DNA from: an uncultured Anaerolineae bacterium
GTDB taxonomy: Bacteria > Chloroflexota > Anaerolineae > Aggregatilineales > UBA3940
Direction of reading: 5' to 3'
Assembly: GCA_964603985.1 (NCBI GenBank)
Contig: CAZRXG010000008.1
Coordinates: forward strand, 10,531 to 74,530
DNA length: 64,000 bases
Of the stretch, positions 3,021 through 61,712 are shown one piece after another (positions within the stretch are counted from its first letter, which is position 1; every line of letters starts with the position of its first letter). Under the pieces are notes generated by a model, which made no database searches, was not told where the DNA came from, and saw only the letters and a list, made by a program, of their open reading frames with translations. The translations under genes were made by a program, and so were the position numbers.

Positions 3021-5180
<2,160 letters not shown>

Positions 5181-5200
5181 GGGGCGGAGGGGTTCAAACC

Positions 5201-5227
5201 GCAGATTGCGCGGATTGCGCGGATTTT
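5201..5227. repeat. 9-nt tandem motif GCAGATTGC|GCGGATTGC|GCGGATTTT (member of a dispersed family)
   Basis: Read directly. It contains two overlapping copies of TTGCGCGGATT (5206-5216 and 5215-5225). Confidence 0.85.
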
Positions 5228-5311
5228 ACATACTCAGTATGCCCGGAGCACGAACGGTGGTTTCCGATACCGACGAGGTATTGACCGGCATCCTGGATGA
5301 CCTCAGAGATT

Positions 5312-5340
5312 TTGACAGAATACATTATTTTGAATACAAT
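5312..5340 (+). promoter_or_regulatory. Sigma70-type promoter of the TetR gene (TTGACA-17-TACAAT)
   Basis: TTGACA lies at 5312-5317 and TACAAT at 5335-5340, separated by a 17-nt spacer. The palindromic operator follows immediately. Confidence 0.7.
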
Positions 5341-5359
5341 ACTGACATGTCAGTTCAGT
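5341..5359. promoter_or_regulatory. Putative TetR operator: 14-bp perfect palindrome ACTGACATGTCAGT within the 19-nt element ACTGACATGTCAGTTCAGT
   Basis: A perfect palindrome abuts the -10 box. The same 19-nt element occurs as an exact reverse complement at 6084-6102. Confidence 0.7.
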
Positions 5360-5369
5360 TTGGAGAATC

Positions 5370-5963
5370 ATGAAAGCCGACCAAAGAAAAAAACAAATCC
5401 TCGACGCAGCGCTGACGGCATTTGCAGAGCATGGCTATGAGCGCACGAGTATTGCAGTTATCTGCAAGAAGGCGGGCATTGCCCGGCCTACTCTTTATCA
5501 GTATTTCGACAACAAACAATCAGTTTTCCGAGCGCTTCTGGAAAGCTATCTGCTTGGATTCCATGAGGCGCTTCATGCGCGACAACAGGCAAAGGATGGC
5601 GGGAAAGCGCTTTCGCAGCGGGAAACCATGCAATCCCTTCACGAGGAACTGTTGGAGGAGATTTCTAACAACCGCGACTTCTATACGATTCTATTCAAGG
5701 AAGCGAAGGCCAAGAATGCGGAAACTGGAGACATTGTCAGGGAATTCATGCAGATGCTGATACACAAGTTAGCGAGCGAAATGGAATCGGAGTCGGGCTG
5801 GGAGGATATGAGCGAGCAGGACATGAAATTTGCCGTGGTGTATATGATTGGCGGCACGATGCAGACGGTGGAGTACTATCTTTTCGACGATGAACATACC
5901 ATGTCAACGCAAGAAATTGCTGAAAGACTTACGTTTATCGAATCGAGGATCAAAGGGGTATAA
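5370..5963 (+). CDS. TetR/AcrR family transcriptional regulator
   Basis: 197 aa with an N-terminal TetR helix-turn-helix (HTH) motif (ILDAALTAFAEHGYERTSIAVICKKAGIARPTLYQYFDNKQSVF). An SD GGAGA precedes it. The gene lies in an AT-rich segment. Confidence 0.9.
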   Translation: MKADQRKKQILDAALTAFAEHGYERTSIAVICKKAGIARPTLYQYFDNKQSVFRALLESYLLGFHEALHARQQAKDGGKALSQRETMQSLHEELLEEISNNRDFYTILFKEAKAKNAETGDIVREFMQMLIHKLASEMESESGWEDMSEQDMKFAVVYMIGGTMQTVEYYLFDDEHTMSTQEIAERLTFIESRIKGV

Positions 5964-6083
5964 CGGCGCAATGCGGAACAGTGGAGAAATTGTGTTGAAA
6001 GCCGGGAGAATACACCGCCAGATGCGGTTGGATTGTTGATCCAATCGGGCCGCTCTGTGTTGAACAATATTTTTTTTCTTTGT

Positions 6084-6102
6084 ACTGAACTGACATGTCA
6101 GT
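6084..6102. promoter_or_regulatory. Second copy of the putative TetR operator (ACTGAACTGACATGTCAGT)
   Basis: It is the exact reverse complement of 5341-5359. It overlaps a weak promoter-like TTGAAC (6060-6065)-17-TACTGA upstream of the membrane-protein gene. Confidence 0.65.
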
Positions 6103-6149
6103 TTTTGTGATGTTTGGCTCGATGAATTGTATCAGGGAAAAAACAAGAA

Positions 6150-6698
6150 GTGAAGAACCTGATGGGGAAAAAGGCAAGAATAAATCGCACACTCAACATT
6201 TTGAACCTGTTTGTATCCATTATTGTTTTCGGCACAGGGCTGATTCTTTTTACTCAGTTTCATGTCGGAGACGGAGCATATCGAAAAGAGTGGCTTGGGC
6301 ATGTGAAAACGTTCTGGCTGCACATTCACCAGGCAGCGGCCATTACTTTTTCAATCGGATTTGCGGCTCACATCCAGACGCATTGGAAATACATCAGGAT
6401 GGTGGTGAAGCGATGGCGTGTGGACCTGTCCAAAAGAATCAAATCAACCACGCGTGAACAAATTCTGTTGCTCATTGCCACGCTGGTTGTAATGTGGGCC
6501 GGATTTTACCCCTGGATCACCATGCCGGGAGCAACGTTGGCGGTCGAGACATATCACAACTGGATCGATGTACATAATGTAGTCGGGCTTATTCTTCTTC
6601 TTGGGATAGCTATACATATCATCAGGCGGTGGCAGCGGATATTTTACTTGCGCCGAAACGCAAAGCTGCGAAATATGCCACGCTTTGGGAACCGTTGA
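6150..6698 (+). CDS. Membrane protein with about 4 transmembrane (TM) helices and His-rich helices, DUF4405/cytochrome-b-like (tentative)
   Basis: 182 aa with hydrophobic helices carrying conserved His (LHIHQAAAITF, AAHIQTHW, IAIHIIRRW). The start could be GTG 6150 or ATG 6162. Confidence 0.7.
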   Translation: MKNLMGKKARINRTLNILNLFVSIIVFGTGLILFTQFHVGDGAYRKEWLGHVKTFWLHIHQAAAITFSIGFAAHIQTHWKYIRMVVKRWRVDLSKRIKSTTREQILLLIATLVVMWAGFYPWITMPGATLAVETYHNWIDVHNVVGLILLLGIAIHIIRRWQRIFYLRRNAKLRNMPRFGNR

Positions 6699-6718
6699 CC
6701 GGAGAGCAAAAACATATT

Positions 6719-6973
6719 ATGGAGGGGAACACAGTGAGGTCGCGAGGAAGAAGCACAAAACACATCTGTTTGGATACCAGCAAGTGCGAAGCCTGCTGGG
6801 TGTGTATCGACGAGTGCAAATACGGCGTACTGGGGAAAGTGGATTTCTGGTTTCATAAGCATGTAGTCGTTAAAGACTCAGAGAAATGTAGCGGCTGCAA
6901 ACACTGCGTCGACGTATGTCCTAATGGCGTGTTTGAGCCTGTGCTACAACCCCAAACCGTTACAAATCGTTGA
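6719..6973 (+). CDS. 4Fe-4S dicluster ferredoxin-like protein
   Basis: Two Cys clusters are present (CEACWVCIDEC and CSGCKHCVDVCP). The long 6629 start overlaps the upstream gene. ATG 6719, or GTG 6734 preceded by GGAGGGG, is more plausible. Confidence 0.8.
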   Translation: MEGNTVRSRGRSTKHICLDTSKCEACWVCIDECKYGVLGKVDFWFHKHVVVKDSEKCSGCKHCVDVCPNGVFEPVLQPQTVTNR

Positions 6974-7119
6974 AGTATTTGTGTCATTGGACACAGTCGC
7001 AGACATAAAACCCCGCATTGGTAATAGTCGCGACCGTTGGGCATCTTGCGCGGATTGATACACTTCCGGTCGATTGCGAGGGAACGTGCTATACTCTGGC
7101 CCCAGGGCGCGTTTTGCGT

Positions 7120-7638
7120 GTGAGAAATCTGAAAGCGGGAGGATCGACGGGCTTGTCTGGTTACACCAAGAAACTTGTGATCTTGTGGGCGGTCGTGATC
7201 GTGAGCTACGCGCTCATCGTCCTGCTGGCTAACCCGATGCGCCAGTGGCGGTTTACGCCGGAAGAGAAGGAAGCGATCTTCGAGGAGCTTCAGGTGGTGT
7301 GGTGCAGGAACATGAACCTGACCACCCACGCCGAACTGGAGGACATGCGGTACGTCCAGGTCGCCGCGATTCAGCAGGAGCATCGCCTGACGGCCATCGA
7401 CACGCGGAACATTGTTCTGTGGGCGGTTGAGCACGGGCGGGGCGTCGAGCCGTGCTTCTTCCAGGCGGCGTCCCGCACGCTGTGCGCGGGGGAGGATCTG
7501 CTTGACCTGACGCCGCAGGGGATCAGGGGGAGTTTTGGGCTTTCGGAGAGCGATGTCGAGCTCATCACCGGGTACGGCTTCCGGCAGGGCTGGGAAGCGC
7601 ATCCGTGCTACTATGAGGAGGGGCTGCCCATCCCGTAA
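7120..7638 (+). CDS. Hypothetical membrane-anchored protein
   Basis: One N-terminal TM helix (LVILWAVVIVSYALIVLLA). No family was recognised. The start is uncertain (the ORF opens at 7018, and GTG 7120 follows an extended -10-like TGCTATACT at 7087-7095). The antisense ORF 6853-7602 looks like low-complexity shadow. Confidence 0.55.
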   Translation: MRNLKAGGSTGLSGYTKKLVILWAVVIVSYALIVLLANPMRQWRFTPEEKEAIFEELQVVWCRNMNLTTHAELEDMRYVQVAAIQQEHRLTAIDTRNIVLWAVEHGRGVEPCFFQAASRTLCAGEDLLDLTPQGIRGSFGLSESDVELITGYGFRQGWEAHPCYYEEGLPIP

Positions 7639-10615: not shown

Positions 10616-12340
10616 TTATTTATCCCAGTCTTCGGCCAGCGTTGACTTGGCTTCTTTTAGATCGATCCATGCTTTGTGGCCGTGCTTTTCGAGCAGGTGG
10701 AGCAGGTTACTGCCGTTTAGCAACACCAATGGTTTGTCCTTTGCGAATTTGTAGGCATCAGGACCGTAATCGGCGGTGGTGACTAGAATGCCTTTGTTCG
10801 CACCCTCGTTCATCACGGTTCCGTAGAGGTCGCGAACCGCCGAAACACCAACAGCGTTCGTGTAACGCTTGGCCTGGATGACGATCTTACCGCCATGAAT
10901 CGGATCGGGATCAAACACAACGGCGTCGATCCCTCCATCGCGGCTTGCACGGGTCACTTTCACTTCACTGCCGGGGCCGGAGAATTCTTTCTCGAAGAGT
11001 TCGCGTACTAGGTGCTCAAAATCCTCCCAGTCCATAGCAGCCAGGTTGTCTCCCTCCCGCACGCCGTCGATGACAGCGTAGGAATCGATGAAGCGGCTGT
11101 CTTCCCGATCCATCTGGAGAATGGGGGCCACCGGTGCCATGCTGTGTAACTTGGAACTACCTACGCCCTTGAGCTTCTTGAAACAAGCTTTTGGTTCAAC
11201 GCTGGCGAGGTTTACCGCCTCGAACTCTTCTTTATCTGCCATAAGTGAGAGGACGCAGGCGTGTACTTCCTGGCCTGTTGCCGGGTCAATTGAATCCACA
11301 TATCCGTTGAAGACAACGGATATTAGAGCGTTAATCCTGTCAGCTTCGTAGAGTTCGTGGATAGTACGCAGTGCAATCTGATACAGCAGGTTATCGTAGA
11401 GCGCGTTAAGCTGCGTCTGCGAAATGTGCTTCTCGTCGAATTCGTCCCGGGTCTGTACGTATTTGACTTCTTTGAGCGTCGGTATACTGTCGACGGCGGG
11501 GAGTTGGTAGTCTACTATCAGGATCTTGCTCTCTGGATTGTAGTCCAATTCACACGACTGGGGGAAATAGTCCGGATAGTCCGAATTTGAGAGCACCATG
11601 TCACAGTAATCGACAATGGCTTCAGGATCGTTGCCTAAATATCTCTCCATCTTTGCATCAACGGACGCATTGCGTTCGTCGCGCCTTCTTAGGAAGGCTG
11701 CGCGTTTTGCGTCCCATGTCGATAAGGCTGCTTGATATTCAGACTGTAGCCTGCTGATTGTCGCGGTTGTCTTTCCTTTTGCCTCCTGCCATTGTTGGTG
11801 CTCACGTTTGAAGCGGGCTTTTCTCTCTTTTTCCCTCGCCACTCTCCGAGAAGTGAAAACACCGTCGAGGAAATCGTCCAGGAAGCCGATCTTAATCTCA
11901 TACTTCTGATCTGATAGTTGGGGTTCTCGCGGAATCTGTGGTAATGCGGGTTTCTCCGGTCTGGGCACGGGGTAGTCCGAGAAGTCTTTCAGAGATTCCC
12001 AGTCAACCGTGTCGTCCACACCAAGGGTATGAGCTAGTGTATTCTCTAGGGCAGACAAAGCCTGTTGAGCTTCCTCGGTGCGTTCGTCGGCGAGGAGTTT
12101 CTTTTCCTCAATTTCCTTTGCCCGGCGCTCGCGCTCCAATCGCTTCCTCTCGGCTTCCTGTTTGCGTTCCCACATCTCATCCCATTGCGCCATTTTTGCT
12201 TCGGCTTTTTGCTCGACTATGTAGAGGTTGTCGCCTCGAACAACTTCGTACTTGTTGAGTCCTCCGTGCCGGATCTCCAGCACATATCTTTTAAGACCGC
12301 TCTTTGTATGGGTAACCCGGATTTCACCCCTCTTGCTCAT
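10616..12340 (-). CDS. Mrr-type (PD-(D/E)xK) restriction-endonuclease-domain protein with a long N-terminal coiled-coil and uncharacterised region
   Basis: 574 aa. The C-terminus matches the Mrr_cat pattern (FEHLVRELF...DGGIDAVV...IVIQAKRY...GILVTTADYG). The N-terminus has charged coiled-coil stretches (ERKQEAERKRLERERRAKEIEEKK). The gene is AT-rich. On the minus strand, a -10-like TACAAT (12362-12367) and an SD AAGGGGGG lie upstream. Confidence 0.85.
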   Translation of the reverse strand: MSKRGEIRVTHTKSGLKRYVLEIRHGGLNKYEVVRGDNLYIVEQKAEAKMAQWDEMWERKQEAERKRLERERRAKEIEEKKLLADERTEEAQQALSALENTLAHTLGVDDTVDWESLKDFSDYPVPRPEKPALPQIPREPQLSDQKYEIKIGFLDDFLDGVFTSRRVAREKERKARFKREHQQWQEAKGKTTATISRLQSEYQAALSTWDAKRAAFLRRRDERNASVDAKMERYLGNDPEAIVDYCDMVLSNSDYPDYFPQSCELDYNPESKILIVDYQLPAVDSIPTLKEVKYVQTRDEFDEKHISQTQLNALYDNLLYQIALRTIHELYEADRINALISVVFNGYVDSIDPATGQEVHACVLSLMADKEEFEAVNLASVEPKACFKKLKGVGSSKLHSMAPVAPILQMDREDSRFIDSYAVIDGVREGDNLAAMDWEDFEHLVRELFEKEFSGPGSEVKVTRASRDGGIDAVVFDPDPIHGGKIVIQAKRYTNAVGVSAVRDLYGTVMNEGANKGILVTTADYGPDAYKFAKDKPLVLLNGSNLLHLLEKHGHKAWIDLKEAKSTLAEDWDK

Positions 12341-12634: not shown

Positions 12635-13030
12635 CTATTTGACGACGACGGTCACCTCGAAGGTCCCGATGGGCGCGACATCCTCCTCCCAGGGGCGGCG
12701 GTAGACCAGCTCCAGGGCCGTCTGGCCGGGGGCGACCGCCTCGAAGGTGAAGGTGAACGTGCCGCCTGCACCGACCAGTCCCTCCGCGTTGGGGTCGGTC
12801 TCGTATTCCGGCTCGCCAGCCGACTTGAGCACGGCCTCATCGACCGAGCCGACCTCCCACAGGTAGCCGGTGGTTGGGTTGCCGACCAGCACGACCTCCA
12901 GCTTATCGCCGGTTTTCAGCTCGACGGTGCTGCCCGCGTCCTCTTCGCCCAGTTGGGTGGCAGACGATCCGCAGGCAACCAGCAGGGCGGCCAGCAAGAC
13001 TATCGCAAAGAAGCCAGGTAAACGGGACAT
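12635..13030 (-). CDS. Chagasin-family (I42) cysteine-peptidase inhibitor, lipoprotein
   Basis: The motif GNPTTGYLWE is typical of chagasin/ICP. The lipobox is LLVAC. ATG 13030 is preceded by GGAGG. Confidence 0.8.
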   Translation of the reverse strand: MSRLPGFFAIVLLAALLVACGSSATQLGEEDAGSTVELKTGDKLEVVLVGNPTTGYLWEVGSVDEAVLKSAGEPEYETDPNAEGLVGAGGTFTFTFEAVAPGQTALELVYRRPWEEDVAPIGTFEVTVVVK

Positions 13031-13083
13031 CACGTACCTCCGGTGTGAAAAGCAGACAGGACAAACATAACGGTGTGGGCCGA

Positions 13084-13431
13084 TCAATCGTCGCGGATGA
13101 AGTGCGGCATGTCGGCGGGGATCTCCAGGGACAGCTCGACCAGGCCCGCGAACTCGCCGTCGCGGTACCAGGGCATCTGGTAGATCAACTTCTTGACGCC
13201 GTGCTTCTCGATGGTGTACACGTTCGGCTCCTGGTTGTCGAGCAGGTGCTGAAGCTCGGTGCGGGCAGGCTCAGGGTGGCAGTCGAGTGCATTGGTGCCG
13301 ATCAGCTTCTCGCCGCCGTCCTCCGCGAAGACTTCGAGCGCCTCGTCGTTCATCGCCAGGATGATGCCCTCGGCGTCGCAGACGGTGATCGAGCCGGGGA
13401 ACTCCTTGACCCAGGTGTGCAGTTCTTGCAT
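13084..13431 (-). CDS. Stand-alone PAS-domain protein
   Basis: About 115 aa with a PAS-like core (VCDAEGIILAMNDEALEVF...GTNALDCHPE). ATG 13431 is preceded by GGAGG. There is no output domain. Confidence 0.7.
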   Translation of the reverse strand: MQELHTWVKEFPGSITVCDAEGIILAMNDEALEVFAEDGGEKLIGTNALDCHPEPARTELQHLLDNQEPNVYTIEKHGVKKLIYQMPWYRDGEFAGLVELSLEIPADMPHFIRDD

Positions 13432-13518
13432 GTGGCCTCCGCGTGTGGCTGATGGCATATAGCCGATGGCGTATAGCGTGTGGCGTATTTTGACGGCGTT
13501 GTCACGAAATCCGGTCGA

Positions 13519-14103
13519 TCATTTGAACGGGCCGACATACTTTTCGACGTAGCGGCGAAAGATCGCTTCTTGTTCGGGTGATTCAAACGCCCTTTTAGGG
13601 ACGAATTGAAACATATGTTTATTCATTGCATGGACCAGTAGATAGTACTGTTTTGTCTCCATTGCTTTGTGGAAGATAGCCCATTCCACTTCACTCTTCG
13701 TTTGTACAGAAGCAACGTGTAAGTGGTAGTCATCCATCACCCAGGTAATTTGTTTGAGCTTATCCTCATGTTTTTTGATCTGCTGACCGGCCAGATAAGG
13801 TCTGAGAAACAGTGTATGGAACGGAAGGAACAAGGGGACACCGATACACACTAACAGGAAGAGAGGCGAACAAGTGCCGGTGATCAGTTCCCTACCTGCC
13901 AAATTGAGCACAACAGCCCCCAGACCGACACACATCGTAAGACCGGCCATAAGGCTAAAGACAACGATGAGGATCAAAGACAACGGTTGTCGCAGCGTAA
14001 ATGCTCGAATGACACGCGAGTAATCCTCATGAGTGAGGGTAAAAGAGAGATCGAGGGGTTCCAAGGTGATCCTCCCATCAATCCTGTGTTGGGTGGTAAA
14101 CAC
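13519..14103 (-). CDS. YcxB-like membrane protein
   Basis: 194 aa with two central TM helices and a C-terminal region resembling the YcxB family (WAIFHKAMETKQYYLL). The gene is AT-rich. Confidence 0.6.
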   Translation of the reverse strand: MFTTQHRIDGRITLEPLDLSFTLTHEDYSRVIRAFTLRQPLSLILIVVFSLMAGLTMCVGLGAVVLNLAGRELITGTCSPLFLLVCIGVPLFLPFHTLFLRPYLAGQQIKKHEDKLKQITWVMDDYHLHVASVQTKSEVEWAIFHKAMETKQYYLLVHAMNKHMFQFVPKRAFESPEQEAIFRRYVEKYVGPFK

Positions 14104-14295
14104 CCCCTACCAGAGTTTTAACCTTTCTCGCCCATTTTGCAAGTGGGCGAGCTGGCTACCGGTTCTCCAGAAAAGCCGAGAGTCGAGGCTTACGGAAAAA
14201 GCCTCGACTCTGCTAAAGGGCCGGGAAGCGCGTCCCGGTGGGTGTCGGAGTGGGCGGGCGCAGGAGCGGCGCAGCAGCAGCGGCGCAAAAGCGGG

Positions 14296-15354
14296 CTAGA
14301 AGAACATCTTGGCAAGCCGCAGGATGCCTTGCTTCCAGGGGGCGCGGTGCGAGATGCCCGATTGGTGCTCGAACTGCTCCAGGTTGTCCAGATACCATTG
14401 ATAGTTGCGGATCAGGGCGTCTTTGTTGGAGTAGCGAGGCTTGAAGCCCAGCACCTTCTCGGCCTTCTCGACGCCGACAAAGGAGTCGGTGGCAGCCGTC
14501 TCGTAGACCCACTTGTAGAGCGGCGACAGGCCGAGCGCCTCCAGGATGCGCAGGGCAAGGATGACCGGCCCGGCGGGGAAGGGGATGATGCGTTTGCCAT
14601 GGCCCGCGTAGTCGAGGACGGCCTGCCAGTCTTCGCCCATGGTGGCGAACTCCTGCGCGCCGATGTTGAAGGTGTCGTTGGCGACCTCCGGGTCGAGGGT
14701 GGCGGTCAGGTAGATGGCCTCGCACAGGTCTTCCACGTCGAGAAGCTGGTAGCGGTTCTTGCCGCTGCCGATCATGGGGAAGCTCTTGCCGTCCTTGGCC
14801 CAGTCGTAGAACAGGGCGAAGACGCCCAGCCGCTCCGGGCCGATGAAGGACTTGGGGCGCAGAATGGGCACGCACATGCCTTTGGCGCGGTATTCGAGGC
14901 AGACCTCCTCGGCGAGCACCTTGGCCTCACCGTAGGGGCCGACGCCTTGTTTCTTGTCGTCTTCGTAGATGGGGTGGTGATCGGGGATGCCGTAGACGGC
15001 GGTCGAGGAGATGTGGATGAAGCGCTCGACGCCGCGCTGGAAGGCCGAGTCGATCACGTTGCGCGTGCCGTCGATGTCGGTGGAGAAGATGTCCTCCCGG
15101 CTGTAGAGAGGCAGCGCCGCCGCCGCATGCACGACGATGTCGATGCCCTCCATTGCCCGGTCGACGACCGCCCGGTCGCGGATGTCGCCGTCGATGATGG
15201 TCACGCTGTCCTTGACGTCGGGGTAGTCGAAGGGGGCAAAGTCGAGCGAGGTGACCGTGTGGCCTCGCTTCAGCAGATAGCGGATGAGGTTGATGCCCAG
15301 GAACCCCGCCCCACCGGTGATCAGGTACGATTTTTTGTCCGTCATCGGGTTCAA
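14296..15354 (-). CDS. NAD-dependent epimerase/dehydratase (SDR) family protein
   Basis: Rossmann motif TGGAGFLG and catalytic YxxxK (PYGEAKVLAE). 352 aa. Confidence 0.88.
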   Translation of the reverse strand: MNPMTDKKSYLITGGAGFLGINLIRYLLKRGHTVTSLDFAPFDYPDVKDSVTIIDGDIRDRAVVDRAMEGIDIVVHAAAALPLYSREDIFSTDIDGTRNVIDSAFQRGVERFIHISSTAVYGIPDHHPIYEDDKKQGVGPYGEAKVLAEEVCLEYRAKGMCVPILRPKSFIGPERLGVFALFYDWAKDGKSFPMIGSGKNRYQLLDVEDLCEAIYLTATLDPEVANDTFNIGAQEFATMGEDWQAVLDYAGHGKRIIPFPAGPVILALRILEALGLSPLYKWVYETAATDSFVGVEKAEKVLGFKPRYSNKDALIRNYQWYLDNLEQFEHQSGISHRAPWKQGILRLAKMFF

Positions 15355-55328: not shown

Positions 55329-55679
55329 CTAGAACCCGAAACCGCGAAAGATGTTCAACGCGCCAACGATGGCGATCAGCGCCAGGATCAGCAGCAAGAT
55401 CAGAAAGGCCAGGTTCACGCGGAAGCCGACGTTCGCTTTGTGCCTGATTTCCTCCGTGACCGACCTTTGTTTGTGTTTGAAGTCGCTGCGGGCGGCAGAG
55501 CTGAGAAACGTGCCTATTGCGCTGGTCATCAAAGCCAGCCACATGATATGCACCAGGGGGCTTTTGAGCATGCTCAGTATGATGGCGAATGTCACAACGC
55601 CCGACGAGACAAAGGCCAGGATGTAACTGTATTGGGCAAAAGTAGCAGGACTGGGACGTCTCATCAAAACACCTCTCAT
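55329..55679 (-). CDS. Small membrane protein (3 TM helices)
   Basis: 116 aa and hydrophobic. The gene is AT-richer than its flanks. No family recognised. Confidence 0.6.
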   Translation of the reverse strand: MRGVLMRRPSPATFAQYSYILAFVSSGVVTFAIILSMLKSPLVHIMWLALMTSAIGTFLSSAARSDFKHKQRSVTEEIRHKANVGFRVNLAFLILLLILALIAIVGALNIFRGFGF

Positions 55680-55736: not shown

Positions 55737-56576
55737 CTATCCGGCCAGCGAGCGGTACGCTTCCTGGATCAACAGCGCGTCTTCCTCCAGGTTGGGGCTT
55801 TCACAGACCAATGTGCCCCGCACGTCGAAATCCACGCAGGCCTGCAAGAAGGCCCGCCACTCGAGGTCCGACTCCTCCAGAATAAGGTGGTTCTTCTCAC
55901 CCTTCGGCCCGTACTCGATGCCTGACAGGTGGAAATGCATGTCGTGCAGGCCTTTCCGTTTGCCCAGCGCCTTCTCGACCCGCTTGAACATGGCGGCGAA
56001 TTCCTGGTAGCTGTTGAAGCTGCCGTCGCCGGGGCGGGCGTGCAGGTGGGCCACGTCGACGCAGGGAGCCACGCCGTCCACCTCCTTGGAAAGCTGGAGA
56101 AGCTCGTCCAGCGTGCCGAACACGGCGCTCTTGCCCATCGTCTCCGGGCGGAGCGTGACCTCGACGCCCTCCTCGCGCAGTATCCCCTGGATCTCGACCA
56201 GCTTCTGTCTGACCCGCTCGTAGACCTGCTCAGGCGGCTGGTCGTGATACGAGCCGGGATGGAAGATGATGGCTCTCGCCCCGGCCAGGTAGCCCTTGCG
56301 GGCGGCGGCCAGCAGCCGCGCGTCGCTCTTCTCCATCAGCTCGGCTGTCTGGCTGTTGAGGTTGATGAAGTACGGCGCGTGGACGCTGAGCTTCACGTCG
56401 TGCTCTTCGGCGGTGGCCTGCATCGTGAGGCACGATTCGTCCTTGACACGCACGCTGCGCACCCAGGCGATCTCCAGCGCGTCCAGGCCCAGTTCGCGGA
56501 TGTAGGCAATCGCTGCCGGGGTGCCGGATCGGGGAGTGCCCTGCGGTGCGCCGACTGTGCCAAAGCGTAGGTTCAA
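55737..56576 (-). CDS. nfo: Endonuclease IV-like TIM-barrel (xylose isomerase-like) protein
   Basis: 279 aa with an AP-endonuclease-2 family pattern (LSVHAPYFINL, IIFHPGSY, PETMGK, CVDVAHLHA). Confidence 0.8.
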   Translation of the reverse strand: MNLRFGTVGAPQGTPRSGTPAAIAYIRELGLDALEIAWVRSVRVKDESCLTMQATAEEHDVKLSVHAPYFINLNSQTAELMEKSDARLLAAARKGYLAGARAIIFHPGSYHDQPPEQVYERVRQKLVEIQGILREEGVEVTLRPETMGKSAVFGTLDELLQLSKEVDGVAPCVDVAHLHARPGDGSFNSYQEFAAMFKRVEKALGKRKGLHDMHFHLSGIEYGPKGEKNHLILEESDLEWRAFLQACVDFDVRGTLVCESPNLEEDALLIQEAYRSLAG

Positions 56577-56700
56577 GCGGTGTGCCTCCGGTGTGTGAGT
56601 GTGGCGATGTTCTCCTACTTACAGGATAGGCTTCCCGGCGGATTTTGCAAGTGACTCTCTATCCGGGCATCTTGTGATTTCATTCGAACGTACAACTATC

Positions 56701-59100
56701 TTATTGGGCCGAGGTATCAGGTGGTGGCAATGGGAGCGGATCGCTGTGCCGGATGCTTGCCCAGTATTCCTGGTAACTATCGATCTTTTTACCCAGTCTT
56801 TTCACCAGGGATTTTGCTCTCGATATATCCTCTTTTGGAAGCCAAGTACGCTCCCCTATTGTTTCTGCCAGAAACTGCCCAAATGCAAGGAAGCTTGGGT
56901 CTTTGATGACTCCGCTTTCAAATAGAGTGGCAAAAGCCGTAACGTTGTCACATTCAGCACATGCCGCAGCTAGGAAGAAAGCAGACCACTCTGCCTTTTT
57001 CTTCTCCCTTCCGGACAGAGCATCGTAGGATAGAGAGCTATAATGCTCTGCTAGGTCGGAGAGTACGGGGAACAAAGTATTGGATCCTAGGGTTGCGCCC
57101 GCAATGATGCCGAATACTCCAACGAAAAAGAGATGTGGAATAGCTTGCGCCTTGAACTTAGGTTTCTCATCAAGCTCTGCATAGTTGTTGCAGAATTTGT
57201 CCCAAGCTTCGGGAAGCAAGTCAAGCACTTGATTAACCACAGCGGCTTTAACAGTTTTTGGAGCTAGGTACGTGGCCTGAGCTACCATTCCCAGATTCAT
57301 TGAATAAACGAGGACATCGGAAGAAGATGGTGTTACCTGCTCCATAATGCGGTTGAGGTGGTTCTCACTGTCGGGGCACAGACCGCAGGCGAAAAATGTC
57401 GCGTATGACCACCAGGGGTCGAGGAAGTTGTTGACAATAACCTGTTCCGCATCAGGGCGACTATCAATCTCAAGCCCAACAAAATACTCTTGGAACGAGC
57501 GATGTTTAAACTCATAGGCGCCTTCATCGTTTGAAAACAGCAGTTCGGATCGTTCGGTTATCTCCTTGGAAAGGATGGCAGGAATAAGTTCCTCTATGCC
57601 GCGTTCCTGGCTGAACCTCTGCACTTCCTTGTCAAAGTCGGATTGGGTGATCTGTGTCTCGTATTGCTCGTGAATTGACCAACTTATTTTTCGAAGGAAG
57701 AACTGTTTTATCCTCCACTCGATCTGTAACGATATGTCTCTACCCGTGTCCCAGCGGCCTAATGCGAGTTCAACATATTTTGCAAATAACTCAGTCAGAT
57801 TAGCTGGGATCTCTTGACCACTTTCATGTAGGCTGGCTACCAATGCAAGTGTCAGCGGCGTAGAAGGTAGTCCGTGAAGAGCGGTTGGTCCACTTACCAA
57901 CCTCGCCAGCTTCCTGCCAGCCTGACTGTTTTCACCATACCAATTCTCTACAAATTCGATCATCTGCGAGGGGGATAGCTCATTGATCCTGAGAACGCGG
58001 AAACCGGACAGAACAGTTGGCTGATCGAAGATATCTAGTAGCCGTGAAGTTAGGACTATCCTTACGGTGGGATATCTATGACTGAACTCTCGAACGAGGT
58101 TGAGGGTGGTTTCTATGCGCTCCTCAGATTGCAATTCATCCAGACCATCGAGTAACACTATCACGGAGCCTTCTGTCAAATCTTCATCAAGTCCTTGTTC
58201 AGTGCCGACCGAACAAAAGCGATGAAACTGTTGGCTAAGTGCGCTCTCTATAGCTTGAGGGTCAGACAAGTCTAAGTTCTTGAAATTCACCAAAACTGGA
58301 ATTGGGCCTCTCCGAGCAGCTTTCTCGTTGCTCTCAATTATGTGAAGTAGCATTTTCCTTAGAAGTGTCGACTTGCCGGATCCAACATCGCCGAGGATGA
58401 CCGTGTTCTCAGACATCCTCAAGATATTGTTGAAAGAGTACCGCTTTTCGCGTTGTTTAGTTTGCTTTGCGTGTTGTCTTGTGATAGGTGTCAGTACAGG
58501 AGGTACGAAGATCGAAGATACCTGATGCTGCTCACTGGAACAGCCGAGGACTCGCAGTTCTTCTATTCGGCTATAAGTTTCCCAAGTTGATGCATAGTAT
58601 TCAGAAACGTATGGGTCGCGTATGGTAAAGAATGACTTATAATGACGCTCCAAAAGGTCGATAGTAGCATCACCGTCTACGAACTGCACGTTCCTAAAGT
58701 CCTTGTCGAGAGCTGCCATTATTATTGTTTTCGCGTTGTCTGATATGTTTCCTGTTGTCCAGACAATGACTTCATTCACAGGAGCCTTCTGTTTTCCTCT
58801 CACGTCTTCAACTGGAACTTGGAATGCCATATTGATTTGGTCTCTGACGATGGCGAGATTGGCTTTACCTCCTGCTGCTGCACTTATGTCGCCTGCTTTT
58901 GCCACGACTGCATAATACTGCCTGCCTCCGAAGTCAGATGGTTTAGAACATACTATGTCCTTGCCGAATTCTTGGCGTCCATGTGTCTCTTGGACGTTCT
59001 CGTACCCCATTTTAATGAGTAAGGGAACCAATATATCTGCTCGAAACTTGGCCTCGTCAAATTCCCTCAGGATACCTCGCTTCTCTGACTGTGTGATCAC
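56701..59100 (-). CDS. STAND/NACHT NTPase with an N-terminal Mrr-like PD-(D/E)xK nuclease domain and an unassigned C-terminal domain
   Basis: 799 aa. The N-terminus reads LLIKMGYENVQETHGRQEFGKDIV...YYAVVAKAG (PD-(D/E)xK-like). Walker A is GDVGSGKSTLL and Walker B is VIVLLDGLDE, followed by a NACHT-like region. The last ~330 aa are helical with no repeat family I recognise. The start GTG 59100 is preceded by GGGGGTG. The gene is strongly AT-rich relative to its flanks. Confidence 0.88.
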   Translation of the reverse strand: MITQSEKRGILREFDEAKFRADILVPLLIKMGYENVQETHGRQEFGKDIVCSKPSDFGGRQYYAVVAKAGDISAAAGGKANLAIVRDQINMAFQVPVEDVRGKQKAPVNEVIVWTTGNISDNAKTIIMAALDKDFRNVQFVDGDATIDLLERHYKSFFTIRDPYVSEYYASTWETYSRIEELRVLGCSSEQHQVSSIFVPPVLTPITRQHAKQTKQREKRYSFNNILRMSENTVILGDVGSGKSTLLRKMLLHIIESNEKAARRGPIPVLVNFKNLDLSDPQAIESALSQQFHRFCSVGTEQGLDEDLTEGSVIVLLDGLDELQSEERIETTLNLVREFSHRYPTVRIVLTSRLLDIFDQPTVLSGFRVLRINELSPSQMIEFVENWYGENSQAGRKLARLVSGPTALHGLPSTPLTLALVASLHESGQEIPANLTELFAKYVELALGRWDTGRDISLQIEWRIKQFFLRKISWSIHEQYETQITQSDFDKEVQRFSQERGIEELIPAILSKEITERSELLFSNDEGAYEFKHRSFQEYFVGLEIDSRPDAEQVIVNNFLDPWWSYATFFACGLCPDSENHLNRIMEQVTPSSSDVLVYSMNLGMVAQATYLAPKTVKAAVVNQVLDLLPEAWDKFCNNYAELDEKPKFKAQAIPHLFFVGVFGIIAGATLGSNTLFPVLSDLAEHYSSLSYDALSGREKKKAEWSAFFLAAACAECDNVTAFATLFESGVIKDPSFLAFGQFLAETIGERTWLPKEDISRAKSLVKRLGKKIDSYQEYWASIRHSDPLPLPPPDTSAQ

Positions 59101-59168
59101 TTGTCACCCCCAGACGATTGATACAGCCACAAATCAGCCCGTGCTGAACAGAAGGGGCTGTGTTCTTC

Positions 59169-61712
59169 TCAAGTCTGCCCTTTGTTGAAAGGGTACTCCA
59201 GCATCTCGTCGATGTGGTCGCTGACGATGTCCAGTGCCTTGCGCTGCGGCTCCGGGATCTTATCGAGCAGCGCCCAGCGGATGATCTTGCCCACAAACGA
59301 CTTGGGCATCTCGTCGACGATGAACACCAGCGCCGGGATTAACTCTTTGGGCAGGCGGCGGATGCAGTAGTTCGAGATGGTGCCCGGCTCGATGTGGCGC
59401 GTGACGGTGACGAAGGCGACCGCCTTGTTACCCACGCCGATCACAGCCGCCTCCTTGACCTCCGGCAATTCGTACAGCACTTCCTCCACGTCACGCGGGA
59501 AGGCCGGGCGTGGCTCTTTATCCTCTTGCTCCGGGTACCACATATCTTTCTTGCGGCTGATGATCTGGAAGTACCCCTCGGCATCCATACGGGCCACGTC
59601 GCCGGTGTACAGCCAGCCCTCGCGCAGCGCCCGCTCGGACTCTTCGGGCATCCCCCAGTAGCCGTCCATGATCTGCGGCCCCCGGATGACCAGCTCGCCG
59701 ATCTCGCCCGGCGGCAGCGGGTTGTCCGTGCCCAGGTGGATGATCCTGGCCTCGGTGTTGGGCAGCGGGAGTCCGATTGTGCCGACCTTGCGCGCCCCGA
59801 ACAGCGGGTTGGCGTGCGTGACCGGCCCGGCCTCGGTCAGCCCGTAGCCTTCGACCAGACGGCCTTTGGTCAGCTTCTCGAACGTCTCCTGCACCTCGAC
59901 CGGCAGAGGCGCAGCCCCGGAGATGCAGGCTTTGATGCTGCGCACGCCGTAGCGCCGCACGCCGGGGAAGTTGTTGAGTGCCACGTACATGGTCGGGACG
60001 CCGGGGAAGATGGTTGGCCGGTAGCGCTTGATCGCCTTCAACACGTCGGCGGTGACGAAGCCGGGCAGGATGATCATGGCCGCCCCGACCGTTATCGCCA
60101 GGTTCATGGCCGCCGTCATGCCGTAAATGTGGCCGAAGGGCACCACGCACAACACCCGCTCGCGGCCTTCCTCCAGGCCGGGGTACCAGTGCCGCGTCTG
60201 GAAGGCGTTGGCAACCAGCGCGCGGTGGCTGAGCATCACGCCCTTGGGCCGGTCCATCGTGCCGCCGGTGTACTGGATCAGGGCCAGCTTGCGCGGCGAG
60301 ACGTTCACCCCAAGCGGGTTGGCGTGGTAGCTGCGCATCAGGTCGACCCACGTGCGCTCTTCTTCGTGTAGGGGCTGCTCCGGGTGGCGGCTCTCCTCGC
60401 CCCCGAACAGCGCGAGAGCGATCTTGTGCCACCACTTCAGGTAGTCCGTGACGTTGGTGTAGATGACGTGTTCGAGATCTGTCTCGTCGAGCGCCCGGCG
60501 GGCCAGCCCGGCGAAGCGGGGCAGCGTGATCAGGATGTGGGCCTGCGAGTCCTTCACCTCGCGGACGATCTCCTCCGGCGGTGAGATCGGACTGGCTCCC
60601 ACCACCACCCCGCCCGCCTTCAGCACGCCGTACAGCGCGATCACCCACTGGGGCGTGTTGGGCAGCAGGATCATCACCCGTGTGCCGGTGTTGACGCCCA
60701 TGCCCCGCAGCGCGTTCCCCAGCCGGTTCGACTGCCGCTCGACCTGGCGGTAGGTCAGCGTCCGGTTCATGAAGACCGTCGCCGGGCGGTTGGGAAAACG
60801 CCGCGCGGCGCTGGTCAGCAGCGTGTGGAGCGGGCGCTCAGGGATGCTGAGCGTGAACGGCACGCCCTCCTCGTACACTTTGAGCCAGGGCCGCTCGGCC
60901 AGCAGCTTGAGATCCTTCTCAACGTCGTCTCGGCTGGTGCGCCACCGCTCCCCGCCCAGCCCCAGGAAGCGGTTCACCGCCCGCTCGACGGCGTCGTGAC
61001 GCTCCAGAATCACCATGTGTTTCGATACGCCGACGTTCACGTCTTCGGCGTGCGGGATGCGGCGCGCCACCTCCTCGTAAGCGGCGCGCGGGAAGACCAG
61101 GTCGCGGTCGCCCCGGATCACCAGGACCGGCATGGGCAGCTCGCGCATCACCTGCGAGCCATCCCAGCGGGCCAGCCCGTTGCGGAAAAAGCGCTTGATG
61201 ACGGCGGGCGGGGCCGAGATCTGGTGGTGCACGAAAGGCCGGATCAGGTTGAGGATCGCAGTCGGCAGCGCGAGCAGCGCGCGCGTGTAGAAGGGCAGCC
61301 TGAACTTGACGGCGGTTGAGGTCAGGATCAGGTGGCTGACCCGCTCCGGGTAGCGGTGTGCGAAGGTCACCGCCAGCGCCCCGCCGAAGGAGTGCCCCAT
61401 CAGCACGACCGGCTCATTGACGCGCAGTTCGGCCAAGACGGCGGCGATGTCCTCGACCATCTCGTCAACCGTGTACGCGCTCGGCGGCCTGTCCGAGTGC
61501 CCGTGCCCGCGCAGGTCGAGCGCGATGCAGCGGTTCATGTCCGAGAAGGCGCGCAGTTGGTAGATCCACTGCATCGCGTTGCCGCCGAAGCCGTGCACCA
61601 TCATGATTGTGTTGAGCGGGTGCTCCGGTGCGATGTCGATCACGCTCAGCCGGATCGGCGGCTTGCGCGAGGTGGTCACGTCGTGGCGATATAGCTCCAG
61701 GTCGACCTGCAT
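59169..61712 (-). CDS. Fusion protein: N-terminal alpha/beta hydrolase plus C-terminal AMP-dependent acyl-CoA synthetase/ligase
   Basis: The N-terminus has HGFGG, the nucleophile elbow GHSFGG and DLRGHGHSD. The C-terminus has the AMP-binding motifs YTGGTMDRPKG, GYGLTE and TGD. ATG 61712 is preceded by GAGGGGGA. Confidence 0.88.
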   Translation of the reverse strand: MQVDLELYRHDVTTSRKPPIRLSVIDIAPEHPLNTIMMVHGFGGNAMQWIYQLRAFSDMNRCIALDLRGHGHSDRPPSAYTVDEMVEDIAAVLAELRVNEPVVLMGHSFGGALAVTFAHRYPERVSHLILTSTAVKFRLPFYTRALLALPTAILNLIRPFVHHQISAPPAVIKRFFRNGLARWDGSQVMRELPMPVLVIRGDRDLVFPRAAYEEVARRIPHAEDVNVGVSKHMVILERHDAVERAVNRFLGLGGERWRTSRDDVEKDLKLLAERPWLKVYEEGVPFTLSIPERPLHTLLTSAARRFPNRPATVFMNRTLTYRQVERQSNRLGNALRGMGVNTGTRVMILLPNTPQWVIALYGVLKAGGVVVGASPISPPEEIVREVKDSQAHILITLPRFAGLARRALDETDLEHVIYTNVTDYLKWWHKIALALFGGEESRHPEQPLHEEERTWVDLMRSYHANPLGVNVSPRKLALIQYTGGTMDRPKGVMLSHRALVANAFQTRHWYPGLEEGRERVLCVVPFGHIYGMTAAMNLAITVGAAMIILPGFVTADVLKAIKRYRPTIFPGVPTMYVALNNFPGVRRYGVRSIKACISGAAPLPVEVQETFEKLTKGRLVEGYGLTEAGPVTHANPLFGARKVGTIGLPLPNTEARIIHLGTDNPLPPGEIGELVIRGPQIMDGYWGMPEESERALREGWLYTGDVARMDAEGYFQIISRKKDMWYPEQEDKEPRPAFPRDVEEVLYELPEVKEAAVIGVGNKAVAFVTVTRHIEPGTISNYCIRRLPKELIPALVFIVDEMPKSFVGKIIRWALLDKIPEPQRKALDIVSDHIDEMLEYPFNKGQT

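Follow-up and report, generated by a model that had tools for sequence, protein, structure and literature searches.

A predicted anti-phage nuclease-NACHT protein, distantly related to bNACHT25, in a low-GC islet of an uncultured Anaerolineae bacterium

The DNA analyzed here (64,000 nucleotides of contig CAZRXG010000008.1 from an uncultured Anaerolineae bacterium, assembly GCA_964603985.1; this whole stretch is hereafter called the window) contains, at positions 56701-59100 of its minus strand, an AT-rich open reading frame (ORF) that begins with GTG and encodes a protein of 799 amino acids. A preliminary description of the window, made from the letters alone, suggested that this ORF is a lone gene for a nuclease-NACHT (STAND) protein with an anti-phage role, that it was acquired horizontally, and that its C-terminal sensor, and therefore its trigger, may be undescribed. 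The first of these suggestions is supported by the domains of the protein, by its invariant residues and by its homology to bNACHT25, an anti-phage protein of Escherichia coli. The last is not: as a whole, the protein is distantly homologous to bNACHT25, and its C-terminus appears to be a divergent form of the NCH1 domain found there. The protein represents a divergent, mostly environmental subfamily of the known single-gene bNACHT25-type defense, and it probably acts as a single-protein sensor-effector of the STAND/NLR type against phages, with the same three-part design as bNACHT25 and bNACHT32.

The NACHT gene and its domains

The features of the gene, with the evidence for each, are as follows (residue numbers are those of the 799-residue protein).

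56701-59100, minus strand: nuclease-NACHT-NCH1-like gene, 799 amino acids, with a GTG start and a stop codon at 56701-56703
59105-59111, minus strand: Shine-Dalgarno-like GGGGGTG, 4 nucleotides upstream of the GTG start (reading of the sequence)
58621-59100, minus strand: Mrr-like PD-(D/E)xK nuclease, the putative effector, residues 1-160 (Pfam Mrr_cat, invariant residues, model and fold matches)
58957-58959, minus strand: codon of D48, the predicted catalytic aspartate (aligned with D48 of bNACHT25)
57931-58425, minus strand: NACHT nucleotide-binding domain, residues ~226-390 (Pfam NACHT, invariant columns, Foldseek)
57457-57930, minus strand: remainder of the NACHT module (helical and winged-helix), residues ~391-548 (from the modeled secondary structure)
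56740-57456, minus strand: all-helical C-terminal region, the putative sensor, residues 549-787 (model and comparison with NCH1)
56740-57288, minus strand: divergent NCH1-like domain, residues ~605-787 (family alignment with the NCH1-bearing protein P0068, and hhalign)

An identical protein is present in public databases (P0001), where it starts at M31 and is therefore 30 residues shorter (769 amino acids). The 799-residue form is the better gene model, because the alignment of about 60 full-length relatives begins at residue 1 (M1 being nearly invariant), because residues 1-30 are confidently modeled as two helices of the nuclease domain, and because GGGGGTG lies ahead of the GTG codon, an arrangement that may favor the longer start. 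Going by the model, the 769-residue version would be without the first two helices of this domain, which are encoded by the first 30 codons of the gene (59011-59100).

The gene is oriented in the same direction as its neighbors and is separated from them by short gaps (68 and 124 bp). Its base composition sets it apart, as had been noticed earlier: the guanine-plus-cytosine (GC) content is 0.45-0.49 inside the islet that the gene occupies and 0.62-0.70 on both sides. The gene itself has a GC content of 0.473 and a GC content at third codon positions (GC3) of 0.485, which is ~40 points under that of the adjacent genes (0.87-0.91 for the nfo-like, hydrolase/acyl-CoA-synthetase fusion, MFS, transaldolase, UDG and cupin genes). 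Nor is there a partner gene, either in the window, as the preliminary description had stated, or in four contexts in which homologues were inspected.

Both N-terminal domains are recognized by Pfam above their cut-offs: Mrr_cat at residues 14-149 (26.6 bits, cut-off 21) and NACHT at residues 233-388 (35.4 bits, cut-off 26.7). E44, G46, D48, K68 and Q88 in the nuclease domain, and G242, K243, D318, D321, E322 and R353 in the NACHT domain, are invariant in 64 family members, and an alignment of nuclease residues adds H40 to the former group. G242 and K243 (codon 58372-58374) belong to the Walker A motif, GSGKST, and D318, D321 and E322 to the Walker B motif, LLDGLDE. Also invariant in the 64 members is H533, in the motif FKHRSF of the winged-helix region (codon 57502-57504).

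An AlphaFold2 model of the full protein, made with the family alignment, reached a pLDDT of 87.2 and a pTM of 0.79. Its top Foldseek matches in the PDB were NLRC4, NLRP3 and NOD2 (E 7e-12 to 1e-10, at 11-14% identity), from which it follows that the NACHT fold, with its helical and winged-helix parts, reaches as far as residue ~548. The C-terminal ~330 residues that the preliminary description left unassigned were thus an overestimate, because residues ~390-548 belong to the NACHT module; the C-terminal domain proper comprises the remaining ~240 (~549-787), confidently modeled as helical throughout. This region opens with a conserved segment, WW..FFACGL, after which the NCH1-like domain follows. 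The model of the N-terminal domain (pLDDT 93.2) has a mixed alpha/beta core, and its best PDB folds were those of MspJI, EcoO109I, EndoMS, the SPARDA nuclease, SwaI and FokI. A sequence search of the PDB with the window protein gave no match at E up to 1. Two readings made earlier from the letters are upheld by these data: the PD-(D/E)xK/Mrr-like nuclease by the Mrr_cat score and by the restriction-endonuclease folds at the top of the Foldseek list, and the NACHT arrangement of the Walker motifs by Pfam NACHT, the invariant residues and the NLR-like fold.

Relation to bNACHT25 and nature of the C-terminal domain

bNACHT25 and bNACHT32 of E. coli (bNACHT clade 6; Kibby et al. 2022/2023; Conte et al. 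2025) consist of an Mrr-like PD-(D/E)xK DNase, a NACHT domain and an NCH1 domain (bioRxiv 10.1101/2022.07.19.500537; PMC12169576). bNACHT25 defends against DNA and RNA phages (PMC12169576; bioRxiv 10.1101/2022.07.19.500537), and its phage sensing is indirect and requires host DnaJ (PMC12169576). The D48A mutation abolishes defense (PMC12169576) and relieves the toxicity of a hyperactive allele (bioRxiv 10.1101/2022.07.19.500537). H506 and S508 of bNACHT25 occupy the positions of H443 and S445 in NLRC4, and mutation there hyperactivates the protein (bioRxiv 10.1101/2022.07.19.500537).

Full-length bNACHT25 (WP_001702659.1, 752 amino acids, L020:4001-6256) was recovered from a complete E. coli genome via the DNA of an N-terminal fragment. 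In a BLASTP comparison with this protein, the window protein was 26% identical over 606 collinear columns (E 6e-41). D48 was aligned on D48, VVAK on VICK, and FKHRSF (H533, S535) on FLHRSF (H506, S508), and the alignment entered the first 24 residues of the bNACHT25 NCH1 domain (576-741). Moreover, the nearest relatives outside the family are four NCH1-bearing proteins, P0068-P0071 (E 1e-32 to 1e-34, versus ~1e-18 for other NACHT proteins), which are 41-48% identical to the N-terminus of bNACHT25.

The window protein and bNACHT25 therefore have much in common: their domain order (shared with bNACHT32), a similar length (799 and 752 amino acids), an aspartate at position 48 of the Mrr-like domain (catalytic in bNACHT25 and predicted to be so here), an FxHRSF histidine motif in the NACHT module, and a helical C-terminus of the NCH1 type. 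Both are encoded by single genes in accessory or mobile DNA, with a GC content well under that of their surroundings (0.32 versus 0.47 for bNACHT25). They differ in that the C-terminus of bNACHT25 is seen by Pfam NCH1, whereas the last ~190 residues of the window protein are related to it at the profile-profile level only. In addition, the bNACHT25 gene is carried by an E. coli prophage of the lambdoid type, whereas the window gene is flanked by housekeeping genes in a Chloroflexota genome rich in GC, and the window subfamily, unlike bNACHT25, is mostly environmental (Chloroflexota, Bacteroidia, Spirosoma). In the E. coli region from which it was recovered (L020; NZ_CP091756.1, 2680446-2688923), the bNACHT25 gene sits just after prophage replication genes (YdaT, YdaV/DnaC-like, DUF1627, DUF977), with an IS3 transposase ~1 kb downstream; it was matched in 17 of 5426 complete E. 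coli genomes.

Residues 605-787 of the window protein correspond, when the family is aligned, to residues 590-759 of P0068, where Pfam places NCH1. Pairwise BLAST of the window C-terminus against NCH1 proteins gave E 0.003 only, touching just the start of NCH1, and gave nothing with P0069. An hhalign comparison was restricted to the NCH1-equivalent part, with 47 sequences of the window clade as the query and nine genuine NCH1 domains, bNACHT25 included, as the template. It yielded a probability of 92.2% (E 6e-7, score 47.0) over 161 collinear columns that spanned the whole domain. When an intermediate subgroup was added to the window clade, these values rose to 96.6%, E 5e-10, score 63.3 and 163 columns. 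Column-shuffled templates (30 per query profile) scored 18.0 or less, and the reversed template gave 0.5% (E 0.11, score 15.4, 9 columns). An earlier comparison, with 4 template sequences only, had given 43.5% (E 2.4e-4) for the NCH1 region alone and 91% when the conserved upstream segment was included; the result for the NCH1 region improved once bNACHT25 and its relatives joined the templates. We conclude from these profiles that the C-terminus of the window protein is most probably a strongly diverged NCH1 domain, so that it matches a sensor clade already characterized.

Family members and the locus in related genomes

Species-representative genomes were scanned with the fusion protein that flanks the NACHT gene. 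Two true orthologous loci were found (L002 and L003), one of which is syntenic with the window. This one, L002, the nearest relative that was identified, belongs to a Chloroflexota metagenome-assembled genome (MAG; HyVt-442) and has flanks with 78-79% nucleotide identity to the window; its gene order is the fusion gene, a GC-rich SHMT-family gene, nfo, a small membrane protein and a cupin. The other, L003, is from an Anaerolineaceae MAG (55% identity) and is without downstream synteny. The NACHT gene is absent from the fusion/nfo junction of L002, where the SHMT-like gene stands instead, and it is therefore accessory at this junction; the preliminary description had proposed to look for just such a difference between related genomes. 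Tblastn found no remnant of the SHMT gene in the window. Homology to L002 in blastn stops at window position 59187 and resumes at 56575, and the islet is accordingly placed at 56576-59186, cut exactly at the conserved gene ends. The accessory status of the gene is carried by this one informative relative and by base composition.

56576-59186, no strand: variable low-GC segment (the islet), without nucleotide homology to L002 (blastn and GC profile)
55737-56576, minus strand: nfo-like AP endonuclease (AP_endonuc_2), the native downstream neighbor (Pfam; 79% nucleotide identity with L002; GC3 0.87)
59169-61709, minus strand: fusion of an alpha/beta-hydrolase and an acyl-CoA synthetase, the native upstream neighbor (Pfam; 78% nucleotide identity with L002; GC3 0.91)

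The nfo-like gene and the fusion gene stand outside the defense system. Just past nfo lies an ORF for a 116-residue membrane protein (55329-55679, minus strand; GC 0.54, GC3 0.73), which is without a Pfam match. It appears to be native and outside the islet, because L002 has an equivalent ORF, for a membrane protein of 113 residues, and flanking DNA that is 68% identical.

The window protein belongs to a family of ~800-residue proteins, of which ~70 were found, with identities to it from 56% down to 21%. At 50% identity the subfamily falls into ~35-40 clusters, most of them derived from metagenomes of environmental samples, and the few named members are from Chloroflexota, Bacteroidia and Spirosoma. 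The family gene stands alone in all four homologue contexts, and its neighbors are unrelated between lineages. Two tyrosine recombinases lie near it in one context, and in another it comes directly after a DNA methyltransferase, in a neighborhood resembling a defense island. Two contexts, from related genomes of 3.3-3.4 Mb, share a syntenic site (FG-GAP, NACHT, Band_7), with the NACHT gene at 8001-10508 in L024 and 8001-10463 in L025. The flanking proteins at this site are 81% and 61% identical, versus 47% for the NACHT proteins, whose genes have GC contents of 0.37 and 0.46; this contrast reflects either fast divergence or replacement by another allele at one site. A DnaJ/CbpA-like gene (DnaJ plus DnaJ_C; L024 14971-15858, L025 18065-18463) follows the NACHT gene 4.5-7.5 kb downstream in these two genomes, with several unrelated genes between; although bNACHT25 needs DnaJ, this proximity is probably coincidental.

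Every family member examined, the L024/L025 pair included, was 11-22 GC points under its flanks, and bNACHT25 is likewise lower than its own. Low GC is thus a property of the family, and for that reason it is not in itself a sign of recent transfer. Of the earlier suggestion that the gene is a horizontally acquired defense gene, the accessory, defense-type character is supported, but the AT-richness on which it drew does not prove that a transfer was recent. Remote REase-NACHT relatives (restriction endonuclease fused to NACHT; 24-27% identity) are present on plasmids and viral contigs, and the window subfamily was not found in deposited phage or plasmid records.

Interpretation, related systems and other features of the window

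By analogy with bNACHT25 and NLRC4, the NACHT and winged-helix module would hold the protein inactive at rest, with H533 at the position of H443 in NLRC4. Infection might then be registered via the C-terminal domain (in bNACHT25 this occurs indirectly, with the host chaperone DnaJ), whereupon the NACHT module would drive oligomerization. The Mrr-like nucleases, once clustered, would degrade DNA, and the phage would be stopped at the cell's cost, through growth arrest or abortive infection.

Several observations weigh against this interpretation. At 26%, the identity to bNACHT25 is low, and pairwise alignment with it ends at residue 627 of the window protein. Taken singly, the folds that the nuclease domain matches in the PDB are weak matches (best E 1.6e-3, TM 0.51), and PADLOC is without a model that recognizes either the window protein or bNACHT25 as a named system. 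An hmmscan of residues 548-799 against Pfam gave no family at E up to 10, NCH1 (PF22728) included; for comparison, bNACHT25 scores 132 bits with the NCH1 model and P0068-P0070 score 97-105 bits. In an exhaustive search of 1.84 billion representative proteins, a profile of the last 172 residues (built from 30 sequences) found only 39 proteins at E up to 0.001. Judged by length and match position, it reached nothing beyond the ~800-residue family and its fragments, save three repeat sequences. These three were judged spurious: P0146 and P0152, on inspection, were translated tandem repeats, and P0153 had a similar pattern of many short matches. Because this profile reaches nothing outside the family, the link to NCH1 depends on profile-profile comparison, and the NCH1 set used there is shallow (nine sequences; a search for further NCH1 domains found 7 proteins only).

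The same BLAST, Pfam and profile results would be expected of a nuclease-NACHT defense protein whose C-terminal sensor is undescribed, unrelated to the known bNACHT or Avs sensors and responsive to a new trigger. We consider this unlikely, since the hhalign scores of 47-63 stand well above the 18 or less of the controls, since an intermediate subgroup bridges the window clade and the NCH1 proteins, and since the region agrees with NCH1 in position, length and all-helical nature, in a protein that is otherwise homologous to bNACHT25. A rather different doubt concerns the effector. The acidic residue of the canonical (D/E)xK motif is replaced by valine (V66-A67-K68), and Pfam holds a family of NACHT-associated inactive restriction endonucleases (NA-iREase1), which is present on another protein of the window; the N-terminal domain might thus be a catalytically dead fold that serves as an adaptor or binds DNA, signaling rather than cutting. 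That is quite improbable, however, given that E44, D48, K68 and Q88 are invariant, that NA-iREase1 is not among the Pfam matches of the NACHT protein whereas Mrr_cat is above its cut-off, and that the ICK motif of bNACHT25 is equally non-canonical, yet its D48 is needed for defense and toxicity (PMC12169576; bioRxiv 10.1101/2022.07.19.500537). Hardly tenable, finally, is the view that the gene, which adjoins nfo and has a UDG gene ~4 kb off, is native, with a housekeeping or DNA-repair-associated role, and merely has an unusual composition. Its shared orientation and short gaps, the lack of mobility genes, repeats and tRNA genes at the islet edges, and the retention of a family member at a syntenic site in two other genomes are in keeping with this view; against it stand the unrelated SHMT-like gene at the L002 junction, the 40-point deficit in GC3, the unrelated neighbors of family members in different lineages, and the fact that the closest characterized homologue is an anti-phage protein.

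An anti-phage sensor-effector of the bNACHT25 type is therefore the reading that we retain. A different trigger is possible inside a homologous NCH1 domain. Indeed, the subfamily may be a distinct nuclease-NACHT branch whose diverged NCH1-like domain answers another cue than that of bNACHT25, a proposal that we regard as conceivable, if somewhat doubtful; such a cue might, for example, not act via DnaJ, or the domain might guard some other host process. If true, comparison with bNACHT25 would locate the part of NCH1 that determines which trigger is answered. In any case, how infection is sensed by NCH1 domains is not yet clear even in bNACHT25, and the diverged C-terminus lends itself to a comparison on this point. 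With this subfamily, the bNACHT25-type design of enterobacterial prophages is found also in GC-rich Chloroflexota and in other bacteria of environmental origin, and since Pfam NCH1 and PADLOC both miss the subfamily, such genes are under-counted in defense surveys. In other respects, the NACHT gene is an ordinary accessory defense gene.

The best PADLOC match was a candidate system, PDC-S60, over the NACHT core alone (E 4e-19; profile positions 347-710 of 1027 against residues 189-558), and no named system was recognized; no Avs1-5 model was among the PADLOC matches at E up to 1. The best NCBIfam match was DS8_antiphage (NF053861; E 9e-16, 56.8 bits versus a cut-off of 790). DS-8 (from DefensePredictor) and PDC-S60 thus have the NACHT core in common with the window protein (residues ~190-558), which covers no more than the middle third of each of these profiles of ~1000 positions. 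In DS-8 the NACHT module is joined to a metallophosphatase, which is the effector (PMC13092281). With those Avs proteins that have N-terminal nucleases, the window protein shares the logic of joining, in a single polypeptide, an effector nuclease, a STAND NTPase and a sensor at the C-terminus. Its NTPase, however, is a NACHT and its C-terminus a short, NCH1-like helical region, whereas Avs proteins have an Avs-type STAND module and bind terminase or portal with a long TPR-like sensor. Animal NLRs (NLRC4, NLRP3 and NOD2) have in common with it the autoinhibitory histidine and the NACHT fold, down to its helical and winged-helix parts; unlike them, the window protein is without an LRR sensor, CARD or PYD, and its effector is a nuclease fused in cis.

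Two features had been proposed as markers of the islet edges, and neither proved significant. The motif GCGGATTTT, at 56638-56646 (one base off the earlier placement at 56637-56645), occurs four times in the window (5219, 45337, 45968 and 56638) versus 0.4 expected, a number reached in 0 of 100 shuffles. It has no copy at the right edge of the islet, and there is no similarity around the four copies, of which the one at 5219 comes after a partial duplicate, GCGGATTGCGCGGATTTT. The excess is probably compositional. The hairpin at 59130-59160, on the right, folds no better than shuffled sequence (z -0.03) and is not terminator-like. Neither flanking direct or inverted repeats nor tRNA genes nor Rfam matches were found at the islet, and with the distribution of GCGGATTTT and the z score of the hairpin this rules out the edge motifs as insertion scars.

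A second single-gene islet of low GC content (~0.50-0.55) is present at 10616-12340 on the minus strand. Its product, a protein of 574 amino acids, matches the PADLOC model mREase_IV (E 5e-67), which stands for Type IV methyl-directed restriction enzymes, and carries Mrr_cat at its C-terminus (E 1.6e-32). This protein has no sequence relationship to the nuclease domain of the NACHT protein. The window therefore holds at least two AT-rich defense-type genes. Two further low-GC stretches were observed: one at 5000-7250 (GC 0.46-0.51), with genes for a TetR-family regulator (5370-5963) and a DUF4405/cytochrome-b561-like membrane protein (6150-6698), and one at 13000-14500 (GC ~0.53), with a gene for a YcxB-like protein (13519-14103).

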